DNA of 64,000 bases from positions 517,882 to 581,881 of the forward strand of contig CP061210.1 of the NCBI GenBank assembly GCA_026016225.1. Reading direction: 5' to 3'. Positions 58,615 to 62,244 of the stretch are shown piece after piece. The notes below the pieces were generated by a model. It searched no databases and was not told the origin of the DNA. It worked only from the letters and a program-made list of their open reading frames with translations. Each line of letters begins with the position of its first letter. Positions within the stretch are counted from its first letter, which is position 1. Source of the stretch: Candidatus Nealsonbacteria bacterium (GTDB taxonomy: Bacteria > Patescibacteriota > Minisyncoccia > Minisyncoccales > JANBVM01). The translations under genes and the position numbers were made by a program.

Positions 58615-60581
58615 TTTTAATATCTCCGCTACCTGCTAGTAGCTGTTTGAGATATTAATTACTACTACACAGCGAACAGGTAGCACACTGAATACCTCTT
58701 TTAGTTTTAGAGATACACAAAGTGCTGCCTATTCGGGTAGTACTTTCCTTTCTTTCCCTTTTTATTTTTTTTCAACGTGCGCCTTAACCCTAAGGGCAAT
58801 TTCGTTCCACCCTTTCTCAGACCGTCAAATAGAATTCTGGCGGGCTGGGAAAGACAGAAACCCATATAAACCCATCTTTCTTTTTTCTTTTTTTACAAAA
58901 AAGAAAAAAATAGAAAAAAATTATAAAAAATTATTTTGGAATTGCATTTGGGACTGTAACTGTTATTTCTTGAACTGAAGAAATTAGTACAGCAACATTA
59001 ATTATCTTCTCAAAAACATTTTCTGGAATTACAATGTTTGCTTTTTCTAAAATTTCCTTTATCATTGCTGCAGTAGTTTTTTTTAAAAGTTCGTCCTTTT
59101 CTTTTTCACTCAATTTTCTTTTATCTACCATTTTTCATCACTCATTTTTTACTCCCATCGGGTTCCGGGTCTCCCCGAGGCAGGTCGTCCGCCTTGAGTC
59201 TTATCTCAAGAGAATCATAGACTCAAACCTGTCTACCAAGATTGATAACCAAGTTTGAGCTTAGATTCTCTCCTTTTCTTATTCAATTTTAGTTATCAAC
59301 GTACTCCCTACTTCACTCTTATAATAATGAAATTTCCCGGCACAACTGGATGGGTTAATTCTGTTATGCCGGCCGATCTCATTACTATGGAAACCGGTCG
59401 GTAAGTTGCCTTTCAAGGAGATTTATCCAAGAGACTGCTACTAGTCCTACTCTCTCCCATGCCCTGTACCGAATGGTGCGGGGTCCTTCACAACAAATAG
59501 ATTTTTCTGCGGTTGGGAGAAAATCTCTTACCCCCAGATTGTCAATGTCCCCCATTAACACGTTTATTTATTGTAAAAAAGGATGTAGGAACAATCTCTT
59601 AGAACTTAATCAGCATCCCTACTCAGCGGCAGAAACGGTTCTTTCTACGTTTCCGCACTAACCTACCAGCTCTCAAACCTGTCGAGTGATACAGACTCGA
59701 GAGATTTGAAAGAACATTTTTAAACAAAGAACTATTGTTTTTTTTACCCCTTAGTGAACTCTGTTCTACTTCGGGGCTCTCTCCTTTTACCCTCCATAGC
59801 TTTAGCGACGGAGGGTCTTTTTCTCCTCTATTCAGAGAGAGGGATGAAGGAAAGTTATTTTTTGAGAAAAAACTGTACGGGCCTAAATTTTTAATTGCTT
59901 TTTAAAGCTTTATAGTGAATGCCCCGTTTTCTCTTTTTAAGAAATCTTTAATCCCCCAGATAAGGGAATATTTCACCGCGTATCCAGTAGGAGATTTCTC
60001 TCTGTAAGTATTCCTTTTTTTAGGACTCTCTCCCCCATCCCTCTCCCTCCCGCCTCCGCTAAAGCTTCGGCGAGGCACAGTCCTCCTTTTCTGACAATTG
60101 CCAGATTAGAGGTATGTTTGGAGAAGACTTTCAAGTTTTTGTTTCAATGAACTATGTTTTCCAAACTAACAGGCGGCTCTCAAAGAGAGAGCCGCCTGAT
60201 ATTAATCGCTAAATCTAGTGACTAATTATTATTCATAATTACGAACTAAAAAATGTAATTATGACTCTCTCCCTTTGCCCTCCATAGTATTCCACGACGG
60301 AGGGTCTTTTTTTTAATTTTTTAAAGAAAATCTCTTTATCTTATTACACCTGTATTATATCATATATATAAATTTTGTCAAGGCCATTTCTGAATTTTCG
60401 TTCTCCTTTCTTTTCCCTCATTCTCAAACAATTGTACTATATCATAGTATCTCAAATCTGTCAAGCCCTTTCATCAGGTTACCACAGCAGGTTGCATCCT
60501 TCCCTACTATTTACTATTTTTTAAAAGAAAAAAAGTGAGCAAGGTCGAACCTTGCTCACTTTAGAAAGATAGTAGAAAATT

Positions 60582-61022
60582 TTAGTCTGTTTTTCTCTCG
60601 TCTGTTTCAGAATGTTTTTTAACTTCTTCTTTCTCTTCAGGAGCTGGAATTTCTTTCTTTTCTTCCGGAGGAGAAATCTCTTCTGGTTTTTCCCCCTCCG
60701 CTAAAGCTTCGGGGGACGAAGCTGGAGCTTCCACTTCTTTTGGTTGTTCCTTCTTCACTTTCTTATGTTTTGCAATTTTCTTTCCCTCAATAATTTTTTC
60801 TGAAACTAACAAATTATAAAGGGTATCTGATGGCTTTGCTCCAACTGACAACCAATAATTAATCCTTTCTTTTCTCAAAATTTTCTCTTTAGTTAAAGGA
60901 TTTAAAAAACCAACCTCTTCTACAAAGCGGCCTTTGTTAGAAGCCTTTCTTTTATCAATCACAACAATTTTAAAAGAGGGCTGATTTTTTTTACCGACTC
61001 TGAATAGTCTAATAGTTAACAT
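60582..61022 (-). CDS. rpsP: 30S ribosomal protein S16 with roughly 60 aa acidic/Pro-rich C-terminal extension
   Basis: 146 aa. N-terminal MLTIRLFRVGKKNQPSFKIVVIDKRKASNKGRFVEEVGFLNP is canonical S16. Confidence 0.85.
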   Translation of the reverse strand: MLTIRLFRVGKKNQPSFKIVVIDKRKASNKGRFVEEVGFLNPLTKEKILRKERINYWLSVGAKPSDTLYNLLVSEKIIEGKKIAKHKKVKKEQPKEVEAPASSPEALAEGEKPEEISPPEEKKEIPAPEEKEEVKKHSETDERKTD

Positions 61023-61031
61023 ATCACTTCA

Positions 61032-61718
61032 CTATTTTTTAACTTCTAATGCTTTTTTGGCTGCTTCTTCCTCTGCTTCTTGTTTTGAAGAACCTTCACC
61101 TTCTGCTATCAATTCTTCTTCTAAAAAAACACCGATAATAAAATGTTTAGCATGGTCAGGACCCCATTCCTTCAATACTTTATAAGCAGGGGTAATTCCT
61201 ACTCTTTCCTGAGATTCCTCTTGAAAATGGGACTTGGCGTCTCTATAAAGACCTTTTTCAATAATTAAGGGCAACTCTTTTATTAAATGCTTTCTTATAA
61301 AACCCTGACAAGTTTTATATCCCCGGTCAAGATAAATTGCTCCAATTACAGCTTCGAAGGTATTGGCTAAAATATATCTTCTGGCTTTACCCAATTCTTT
61401 TGATTCTCCCCGTGAAAGTAACAAAAAATCGTTAAAACCTAATTTTTGGGCAACCCTTGCAAGTATCTTTGAGTTCACAAGAGATGCTCTCCAATTAGTT
61501 AACTCTCCTTCTGTTTTTTTAGGATATTGCTGATAAAGATCTTCTGTAACAACTAATTCTAATACTGCATCTCCTAAAAACTCAAGTCTTTCATTATGAG
61601 ATAAATGAAAATCAGGATGCTCATTGCAATAAGAACGATGAACAAAAGCCTGAGTCAAAAGGTCTTTGTTTTTAAATTTAATATTTATTTTTTTCTCAAA
61701 TTCTGAAAAATCCTTCAC
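61032..61718 (-). CDS. rnc: Ribonuclease III
   Basis: 228 aa. Signature ERLEFLGDAVLELVVTEDLY and C-terminal dsRBD. Confidence 0.9.
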   Translation of the reverse strand: MKDFSEFEKKINIKFKNKDLLTQAFVHRSYCNEHPDFHLSHNERLEFLGDAVLELVVTEDLYQQYPKKTEGELTNWRASLVNSKILARVAQKLGFNDFLLLSRGESKELGKARRYILANTFEAVIGAIYLDRGYKTCQGFIRKHLIKELPLIIEKGLYRDAKSHFQEESQERVGITPAYKVLKEWGPDHAKHFIIGVFLEEELIAEGEGSSKQEAEEEAAKKALEVKK

Positions 61719-61731
61719 TTTATTATCTTTG

Positions 61732-62244
61732 TTATTTGTTATTATTTTGTTCTTTTTTTTCTTCTTTGTCCTCTAAAACCTCCTGTCCTTCCGCAGCTAA
61801 AGCTGCGGAGGGTTTCTCACCTTCTTTAGGAGAAATAAGTTCAAAAACTGTTCCTAAAACTCCATTAATAAATTTTCCTGAATTCTCGCCTCCAAATGAT
61901 TTTGCCAATTCAATTGCCTCATTAATAGCTACTTTTGGAGGAACAGCTTTTTTATCTTCGTACAACAGTTCAAAAATTCCAATTCTTAAAATATTACGGT
62001 CAACAATTGAAATCTGCTCAATGGGCCATTGAGGAGCAGCTTTTTTTATAATTTCATTAATCTCTTCAATATGTTCAACCACTCCTGTTACCAGTTCCCA
62101 GACAAAACTTTCATTTTCTAATCCGGGTCCAAATTCTTTCAGATTTTTTTCGGTAATCTTTTTCAAATCTAATTCTCTATCTGAAAAATCCCATTCATAT
62201 AGAGATTGCATAGCGATTGAACGTGAAAGGTGACGACTAGCCAT
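61732..62244 (-). CDS. nusB: Transcription antitermination factor NusB with C-terminal extension
   Basis: 170 aa. NusB core (RELALQSLY-like MQSLYEWDF..., [12 protein letters not shown]) plus about 30 aa acidic tail. Confidence 0.75.

Follow-up and report, generated by a model that had tools for sequence, protein, structure and literature searches.

The locus described here raises the question of how one and the same palindromic DNA sequence can occur both between genes and within the coding sequences of unrelated proteins. It is situated in a 64-kb stretch of AT-rich DNA (about 30-38% G+C; positions 517,882 to 581,881 of contig CP061210.1; hereafter the window) of Candidatus Nealsonbacteria, a member of the Candidate Phyla Radiation (CPR; Patescibacteria). 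The S16 protein encoded in the window is identical to a database entry assigned to this organism. A preliminary description of this DNA had reported two intergenic hairpins and two related ones in the 3′ coding tails of rpsP (ribosomal protein S16) and nusB, and had proposed that a small palindromic element inserted in frame into the ends of these genes. All four hairpins are present as described. On the evidence presented below, it is highly probable that the palindrome belongs to a family of minute, non-autonomous repeats 30 nt in length, whose copies inserted at many sites; these were found at many unrelated positions and in both orientations.

The core of the palindrome, GCTAAAGC, occurs 11 times in the window, compared with an expected number of 2.24 ± 1.49, and none of 100 shuffles reached 11. 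A 17-mer, CTCCGCTAAAGCTTCGG, is identical at position 60054 (intergenic) and at 60696 (within the rpsP tail), and with up to three mismatches it is matched at five sites in the window (0.10 expected). Since both counts lie far above expectation, the observation is real and not a product of chance. A covariance model, built from 120 instances and applied with a cut-off of E<0.02, identified eight copies in the window, including four that had not been listed previously (in rplL, in trmD, at 7018-7047 and at 60274-60304). The enrichment that had been predicted for the palindrome was thus borne out in the window. Four to five of the eight copies are intragenic, and many of the copies found in CPR genomes are located within long open reading frames (ORFs).

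Consensus, fold and intergenic copies of the element

A family profile, compiled from 124 instances from 120 genomes, yielded the consensus Y0 CCNCC TTC GCTAAAGC TWC GGNGG R25 CARG. This unit of 30 nt (10 codons) is composed of a 26-nt imperfect hairpin and a 4-nt 3′ tail. Six GC-rich base pairs form the outer stem of the hairpin; a 3x3 internal loop separates them from a 2-bp GC clamp, which is capped by a TAAA loop, and the unpaired CARG follows. On the reverse strand, the tetranucleotide CYTG precedes the imperfect hairpin at its foot, on the 5′ side. The shared palindrome noticed earlier is real; the consensus given for it was only an approximation of this 30-nt unit. Outside positions 0-29 the flanks of the 124 instances are random on both sides, with neither a target-site duplication (TSD) nor a conserved target sequence beside the copies. 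Within the unit, the positions left free by the search pattern are strongly biased (T6 85%, C8 95%, Y0 94% and R25 98%).

Because single-sequence folding z-scores are uninformative for such short GC-rich sequences, covariation was used to assess the structure. The pair 0:25 is C-G in 53 instances and U-A in 51, and the pair 3:22 is G-C in 50, U-A in 28 and A-U in 7. Stem cells are paired in 96% of cases, and the covariation score was 0.198, compared with 0.079 for shuffled data (none of 500 shuffles scored as high). The element hairpin is under selection, as revealed by these compensatory stem changes. The predicted DNA fold of the consensus, ((((((...((....))...))))))...., equals the proposed structure. 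No Rfam family matched the copies, either at the gathering threshold in the window or at E<=10 in the region 59300-60700, and a scan for tRNA and tmRNA genes detected nothing at them.

The element is free of stop codons in four of the six frames (a TAA interrupts one and, on the opposite strand, a TAG interrupts another), and all four open frames were observed within long ORFs. The encoded peptide varies with frame and orientation: SAFAKATADK, SAEALAKAG, PPSLKLRR or RRSFSEGG.

Three copies are placed in the intergenic DNA that follows the minus-strand genes rnhB, rpmF, nusB, rnc and rpsP and that lacks convincing ORFs over approximately 1 kb. The first (60049-60078, plus strand; 36.6 bits, E 2.7e-6) carries the same 17-mer as the rpsP copy, and its hairpin (60052-60076) has the sequence GCCTCCGCTAAAGCTTCGGCGAGGC. 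The second (59786-59815, minus strand; 43.5 bits, E 7.4e-8) represents a GTC...TAT subfamily; its hairpin (59790-59815) has the sequence CCCTCCATAGCTTTAGCGACGGAGGG and is followed on the plus strand by a T-run (TCTTTTT). The third (60274-60304, minus strand; 23.6 bits, E 0.0026; repeat families D11 and D13) is diverged, in that the stem and flanks are those of the 59786-59815 copy and the loop is replaced by GTGGAATAC; a homologous block is present in the related locus L127.

The intergenic and multi-frame copies bear on an alternative explanation of the intragenic hairpins, namely that they are a by-product of low-complexity tails rich in Ala, Pro, Gly and Glu (the GCN, CCN and GGN codons being complementary), or reflect a selected peptide motif. 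The tails are indeed rich in A, E, K and P, and natural Ala-rich hinges can mimic the peptide pattern. The preliminary description had stressed a peptide (EGEKP/A-LA-EG) shared by S16 and NusB; the A-L-A motif with flanking small residues is common to both proteins, but the rest of the peptide is not. Against the explanation by low-complexity tails stand the identical 17-mers in coding and non-coding DNA, with five matches where 0.10 were expected, the frames that give unrelated peptides (PRLRGRSGGR, RRSFSEGG) and the sharp 30-nt boundaries, which include the non-palindromic CARG tail. The copies that lie between genes or are read in several frames refute it for practical purposes, and we assign it a negligible probability.

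Insertions within protein-coding genes

One intragenic copy (60692-60721, plus strand; 42.4 bits, E 1.3e-7) lies in the C-terminal tail of rpsP. The host gene (60582-61022, minus strand) was recognized as an ORF whose homologs carry PF00886, and the palindrome at 60691-60716 encodes SSPEALAEGE. An ortholog with 91% identity (P0002) lacks exactly ASSPEALAEG, and a homolog with 80% identity (P0003) also lacks this decapeptide but contains PASAKASAGEGE at another position. The alignment of the DNA shows, in the window, a sharply defined block of 30 nt (coding strand GCTTCGTCCCCCGAAGCTTTAGCGGAGGGG; the boundary is ambiguous by 1 nt, i.e. 60692-60721 or 60693-60722), which is missing in the related loci L001 and L004. 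The flanks are near-identical in the relatives (about 94-95%), including a shared stop codon and terminator, and the comparison of filled and empty sites revealed no TSD. The rpsP gene of L004 has its own 36-nt block, ...CCCGCCTCCGCCAAGGCTTCGGCGGGCGAG..., located 40 nt upstream in the opposite orientation and encoding PASAKASAGEG. The model also gave matches of both orientations in the tail of S16 from L004, L125 and L126, and recognizable element decapeptides were found, at differing positions, in 9 of 120 S16 relatives. Judging from these alignments, the rpsP copy appears to be a recent 30-nt insertion. The suggestion that the tails are insertion-derived is supported by the exact gap at ASSPEALAEG, corresponding to 30 nt of DNA.

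The copy in the C-terminal tail of nusB (gene at 61732-62244, minus strand, assigned by Pfam NusB; copy at 61787-61816, plus strand; 25.2 bits, E 0.0011) is a variant, in which compensatory GCA/TGC closes the internal loop and from which the CARG tail has been lost. It folds as an 11-bp hairpin (-10.8 kcal/mol, DNA), and the hairpin sequence (61787-61812) encodes PSAALAAEG. The insert lies downstream of the Pfam NusB domain, whose last residue is aa 133. The hairpin is kept in L001 and L004, while in the more distant L125 and L126 the NusB protein stops short of the copy; this distribution indicates that the nusB copy is an older insertion. RNase III substrates typically have stems longer than the approximately 11 bp found here, and this copy is a member of a dispersed family; we do not favour its interpretation as an RNase III site. 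The nusB start codon and the DNA immediately preceding it (62243-62273) hold, in addition, three overlapping copies of repeat D5, spaced 8 nt apart (ATGGATAAATGGTTA, ATGGTTATATGGCTA and ATGGCTAAATGGCTA).

Insertion is not confined to the 3′ ends of genes, for which it had been proposed from rpsP and nusB and where it was supported. The rplL gene (ribosomal protein L7/L12; 46152-46631, minus strand, identified by the Pfam L12 dimerisation domain) contains, in the part encoding the N-terminal tail, a full copy (46578-46607, minus strand; 41.6 bits, E 2e-7) directly followed by a right-half copy (46560-46577, minus strand), AAAGCTACGGAGGGCAAA, which encodes K-A-T-E-G-K. The dimerisation domain of this protein begins only at aa 35. 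The basal N-terminus of L7/L12 in relatives is MAEEKKEEKIEVPEKF..., and many lineages are exactly 10 residues longer, e.g. MAEEK[NPSSAKATEG]KEEKVQVPEKF (152 aa, compared with 142 aa). The corresponding filled and empty DNA pair, L128 and L129, differs by a 30/31-nt block, CCCATCCTCCGCTAAAGCTACGGAGGGCAAG. Recognizable element decapeptides are present, at differing positions, in 20 of 120 L7/L12 relatives. Since the insert in rplL is preceded by the conserved MAEE.. start and followed by further conserved sequence, it must be translated.

Two further observations concern L7/L12. In four relatives (P0198, P0205, P0219 and P0226) the nonapeptide PASAEATAG is present in two places, the N-terminal tail and the interdomain hinge, which suggests a putative second insertion in the flexible hinge. 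In L128, whose rplL carries the element, an ORF encoding a 75-aa GIY-YIG domain (284-511) is located between rplJ and rplL; this ORF is absent in L129.

The fourth intragenic copy (54954-54983, minus strand; 20.2 bits, E 0.015) is diverged and lies inside trmD (54850-55563, minus strand). It is read in the second open frame as P-R-L-R-G-R-S-G-G-R, and the TrmD proteins of the window and of L001 contain exactly these 10 extra residues (PRLRGRSGGR), compared with that of L126, between YTRPEVF and VPKVLLSGNH. We take this site, from what is known of TrmD structures, to be a flexible interdomain linker.

The inserts in the disordered tails and linkers of the essential proteins S16, NusB, L7/L12 and TrmD therefore keep the reading frame and persist as decapeptides; the frame is kept because the length of the unit is divisible by three and four of its six frames lack stop codons. 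Three features argue that they are translated and not bypassed: (i) the sequence context in rplL, (ii) the downstream tail and stop codon of rpsP, which are kept in frame, and (iii) the internal position of the insert in trmD. This provides a concrete and datable mechanism, operating in steps of 10 residues, for part of the lineage-specific terminal extensions and linker insertions of ribosomal and other housekeeping proteins of the CPR. It also implies that the repeat can mislead the alignment and annotation of the phylogenomic markers S16, L7/L12 and TrmD, and that it creates spurious small ORFs (RRSFSEGG, PPSLKLRR and similar).

The conservation of the hairpin might also mean that the copies are not selfish insertions, but selected cis-acting RNA or DNA signals, such as protectors of mRNA 3′ ends, processing sites of nusB-rnc-rpsP, terminators or a protein-binding site. 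Pairing of the stem is kept by compensatory changes, the loop and internal-loop sequences are conserved, T-runs follow two intergenic copies on the plus strand, and the nusB copy is located approximately 70 nt upstream of rnc; moreover, repetitive extragenic palindromes (REPs) are known to stabilise mRNA and to terminate transcription (PMC3733652, PMC6006769). We nevertheless consider this improbable. Either orientation and four reading frames are represented among the copies, which lie in N-terminal tails, internal linkers and intergenic DNA, and within other repeats; their 3′ flanks are random, with no general T-run; those in rpsP and rplL are missing in close relatives; and no Rfam family was matched. 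A cis-acting signal cannot explain the fixed 30-nt block, the random flanks, the unrelated host genes and the many phyla in which the element occurs. A function as intrinsic terminator was rejected, because only the copies at 59786-59815 and 60274-60304 have a T-run, which is on the opposite strand, because A-runs follow the coding copies, and because the 3′ flanks are random. If the copies are insertions, as we propose, an RNA-level role of single copies (protection of mRNA 3′ ends, termination) would be secondary.

Distribution, insertion sites and possible mode of mobilization

The preliminary description had treated the inserted tails as characteristic of this lineage, which proved too narrow: the element is also found in many other phyla and in phages. 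A pattern scan with CCNCCNNNGCTAAAGCTNNGGNGG, using one genome per species, identified at least 120 loci, from 120 different assemblies. Among the 120 loci listed, whose taxonomy was taken from the record titles, about 27 are from Patescibacteria, about 32 from Bacteroidota, about 20 from the Planctomycetes-Verrucomicrobia-Chlamydiae (PVC) group, about 15 from Alphaproteobacteria and about 6 from Gammaproteobacteria; Acidobacteriota, Nitrospirota, Desulfobacterota and Elusimicrobia are also represented, giving about ten phyla in all. The loci vary in G+C content between 0.33 and 0.66. Copies from different phyla agree in their consensus, in the randomness of their flanks and in showing compensatory changes in the stem. 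The covariance model detected about 30 further copies in 683 kb of the listed loci, often in clusters or as tandem or inverted doublets.

In the IMG/VR database, the element was found in 74 stretches, the majority of them in agreement with the consensus, and phage contigs encoding a P22-type portal or Mu F-like protein contain 6-12 copies each. It is absent from 5,426 Escherichia coli genomes and from GenBank phages, and a plasmid collection gave only partial matches of 23-27 nt.

Many of the assemblies are metagenomic, and a short hairpin with random flanks could in principle be an adaptor or linker hairpin retained in contigs. An assembly or library artefact of this kind is, in our opinion, practically excluded, since the element is present in isolates and complete genomes (Maricaulis, in the chromosome, Bradyrhizobium, Mesorhizobium and Terrimonas; also Flaviaesturariibacter), the same diverged copies occupy orthologous sites (nusB, trmD) in the independent assemblies of the window, L001 and L004, and the copies exhibit decay, covariation and compatibility with the frame of the genes that contain them.

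Two of the listed loci place the element beside tRNA genes. In a member of the Saccharibacteria (L079, 2690-2965), two copies flank a tRNA-Ala gene next to tRNA-Ile, one of them abutting a 19-nt duplicate of the tRNA 3′ end, and in L038 a copy directly abuts tRNA-Ile.

Several insertions reveal a target. Copies nested in other copies, at GCT^AAAGC, were found in L011, L037, L068 and L194. The resulting junction of a full copy with a right half (AAAGCT...) occurs in these four loci, in L020 and in rplL of the window, while chance would give only approximately 0.001 of these junctions in a set of roughly 200 instances. The arrangement in rplL (full copy plus right half) is, judging from its sequence, the pattern of one copy landing in the TAAA loop of an earlier copy. 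In L020, a 30-nt copy is placed at T^AAA in the loop of a different REP. In the window, the copy at 7018-7047 (minus strand; 29 bits, E 1.5e-4; loop GCTGAAGC) lies in a sequence (7011-7054) that reads TCGCCC-T-element-C-GGGCGA-TTTTTT, i.e. it occupies the loop of an intrinsic terminator; at 19888 and 24360 the window has terminators of this type without an insert, TCGCCC-AAA-GGGCGA. The nested copies and the REP loop of L020 indicate that T^AAA hairpin loops are a preferred target, and the terminator of the window is a further case of insertion into a loop.

The locus L020 (Parcubacteria; 3690-4550) also contains an ORF encoding a 181-aa protein similar to the REP-associated tyrosine transposases (RAYTs), with NNHYQ in place of the HUH motif and with Y...NPVKHG. 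This ORF is flanked by REP doublets, GTAACGCACTAAAGTGCGTC / GGAACGACAGACTTTAGTCTGTTAC, the REP having the form GTAACGCAC-TAAA-GTGCGTC, and by its organization the locus is a putative REPtron-like locus in a CPR genome.

Full copies followed by a right half could alternatively be read as 5′-truncated products of an RNA intermediate, i.e. of reverse transcription of a small hairpin RNA and target-primed insertion. The arrangements in rplL, L020 and L083 lend themselves to this reading, with which the absence of TSDs also agrees. Half copies are, however, rare (1 right-only and 2 left-only, compared with 56 full) and are explained by loop nesting, the left halves being present in L011, L037 and L068; there is no A-tail, and no reverse transcriptase was found near the copies. 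Spread via RNA is thus very unlikely.

We favour movement at the DNA level. The copies would be moved in trans, as single-stranded DNA (ssDNA), by a hairpin-recognizing enzyme of the HUH/Y1 type (RAYT or IS200/IS605-like) or by a similar host or phage enzyme, and phages may help to carry the element between lineages. The link with HUH-Y1 enzymes is one that we infer by analogy: the absence of TSDs, the tetranucleotide at the foot of the hairpin, the clustering, the doublets and the ssDNA-loop targets resemble the properties of HUH-Y1 substrates (PMC6006769, PMC3116915). The T^AAA loop preference, combined with the lack of target duplication, offers a starting point for elucidating the mechanism.

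Several points weigh against this explanation. Mobility is deduced from presence and absence, and at any single site precise deletion of the hairpin could, from the alignments, produce the same pattern. The flanks of the element are no more hairpin-like than shuffled sequences (mean best stem 2.34 and 2.41, respectively), and loop targeting covers a minority of the insertions, because most flanks are not hairpins. Unlike IS608-type elements, the copies have no conserved target sequence beside them. Clustering of 2,594 ORFs from the 120 loci revealed no recurring protein family near the copies, only generic ones (short-chain dehydrogenases (SDR) and ABC ATPases), and between paired copies there are ordinary genes only and no transposase. 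A tblastn search with an approximate RAYT query, covering 1.58 Mb of loci, gave a single match, in L020; apart from this, RAYT genes are absent near 204 loci, and no ORF tested in the window has a Pfam match to one. The sole RAYT-like gene found (that of L020) is flanked by a different REP family. Finally, co-evolving REP/RAYT pairs usually lack a single cross-phylum consensus (PMC3116915, PMC6006769). Co-evolution with a lineage-specific transposase does not readily account for one consensus shared by CPR, Bacteroidota, PVC, Proteobacteria, Acidobacteriota and phages; this sharing points to a conserved mobilizing machinery or to frequent phage-mediated transfer.

Comparison with known repeats and features of the surrounding DNA

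In architecture, the element most closely resembles the REPs, tagged stem-loops of 20-40 nt, of which the GTAG and CGTC super-families occur in eight phyla, can lie in genes and include the Rickettsia palindromic elements RPE-4 and RPE-6 (PMC3733652). It shares with REPs and their doublets (REPINs), and with the associated RAYT systems, its size, an imperfect, GC-rich hairpin in which mismatches are conserved, and a foot tetranucleotide (PMC3733652, PMC3116915, PMC6006769), as well as clusters, inverted doublets, occasional in-frame intragenic copies and insertion into other palindromes. Its tag is, however, CYTG (CARG on the other strand), and not GTAG, CGTC or the CnGA foot of the hairpins that flank class 3 TnpA_Y1 genes (PMC6006769). 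In contrast to REPs, which are species- or genus-specific, it has one consensus in about ten phyla and in phages, and many of its copies lie within essential genes. Unlike a REPtron, it does not flank any RAYT gene found among the window ORFs tested or in the 204 loci.

In the CGTC REPs, for which no transposase is known, the stem comprises 8-9 bp, the first of them A-T pairs, and encloses a loop of 4-5 nt; these repeats have a terminal CGTC as well as a CCA tail (PMC3733652). The element differs from them, and from RPE-4 and RPE-6, in its 6-bp outer stem (CCNCC/GGNGG) with a 2-bp clamp, in its 3x3 internal loop and in its CARG tail. The Rickettsia palindromic elements in general are likewise palindromic, inserted in frame in unrelated housekeeping genes and translated at tolerated positions (PMC10969869); those of the RPE-1 type are about 100-150 bp in length, encode a conserved peptide and are found only in Rickettsia, whereas the element has 30 nt and occurs in the CPR and many other phyla. 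MITEs (miniature inverted-repeat transposable elements) are also short non-autonomous repeats and can create in-frame fusions (PMC10969869), but they have terminal inverted repeats matching those of insertion sequences, are usually longer than 100 bp and generate TSDs, while the element is a single hairpin without TSD. Derivatives of IS200/IS605 (PATE-like) possess one subterminal hairpin on the left and another on the right, and insert 3′ of a target that is a fixed tetra- or pentanucleotide; the element has one hairpin and no conserved 5′ target, yet its lack of TSD and its 3′-terminal tetranucleotide following the hairpin are compatible with this family.

The repeats SDR4-6 of Nostoc and other cyanobacteria, attributed to Elhai et al. 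2008, are reportedly mobile hairpin repeats of 21-27 nt, which are nested and lie inside conserved sequences; we know of no transposase assigned to them. As very small nested hairpin repeats they resemble the element, and, like the RPE-1 elements, they can be regarded as functional analogues of it. Their sequences differ from it, no cyanobacterial match is present among the 120 loci listed, and, to our knowledge, neither a fixed, codon-compatible length of 30 nt nor a CARG tail is a feature of SDRs. Yeast mitochondria contain GC clusters and 'byp' elements, which are GC-rich palindromic mobile elements of approximately 30-50 nt in AT-rich genomes, located also in protein-coding genes, and some of which are bypassed by the ribosome. 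These are organellar and eukaryotic and have no sequence relationship to the element, whose conservation of frame indicates translation.

Based on these comparisons of sequence and fold, the element is best filed as REP-like in architecture, without being a member of the GTAG, CGTC or RPE families. Searches of the literature with DNA strings, peptide strings and keywords found no published description, which, given the incomplete coverage of journals, is no proof of novelty. That the family is new in the full sense, i.e. a pan-bacterial, phage-borne, codon-compatible hairpin of 30 nt with a new CYTG foot tag, a broadly conserved putative ssDNA machinery, a T^AAA preference and a recurrent role as a source of decapeptides, especially in the CPR, is a serious possibility, to which we give slightly less than even credence.

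The intergenic copies of the window are located in DNA with features of its own. Between rpsP and a gene encoding a KH-domain protein there is a 4.2-kb segment (56292-60527), in place of which L001 and L004, relatives with 94-98% identity in this comparison, have approximately 600 bp. The segment has a higher G+C content (0.38-0.40) and contains three of the eight element copies, e.g. that at 60049-60078. None of its ORFs has a Pfam match; the segment is possibly an integrated or exchanged island. Within it, a 112-nt block (59322-59433) is 81% identical to positions 3387-3499 of L127, in surroundings that are not alignable.

Two minus-strand sigma-70 promoters with near-consensus sequences, TTGACA-17-TATAGT (60464-60436) and TTGACA-16-TATAAT with an extended TG (60381-60354), precede, in a region extending to 60198-60170, the diverged copy of the element, another hairpin, of 10 bp (TCATAATTAC/GTAATTATGA), and a stem resembling a terminator. 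The promoters, the hairpins and the terminator-like stem suggest a candidate small RNA of approximately 180 nt. The block 60153-60398 is approximately 70% conserved in L127 and has no Rfam match. Finally, a purine-rich motif, GGAGAGAG(T)C on the minus strand (CTCTCTCC on the plus strand), is present beside each of the intergenic hairpins (59770-59785, 60020-60031 and 60262-60273; families D11 and D13). This motif may belong to a longer repeated unit, or it may be a sequence resembling a Shine-Dalgarno or anti-Shine-Dalgarno sequence.

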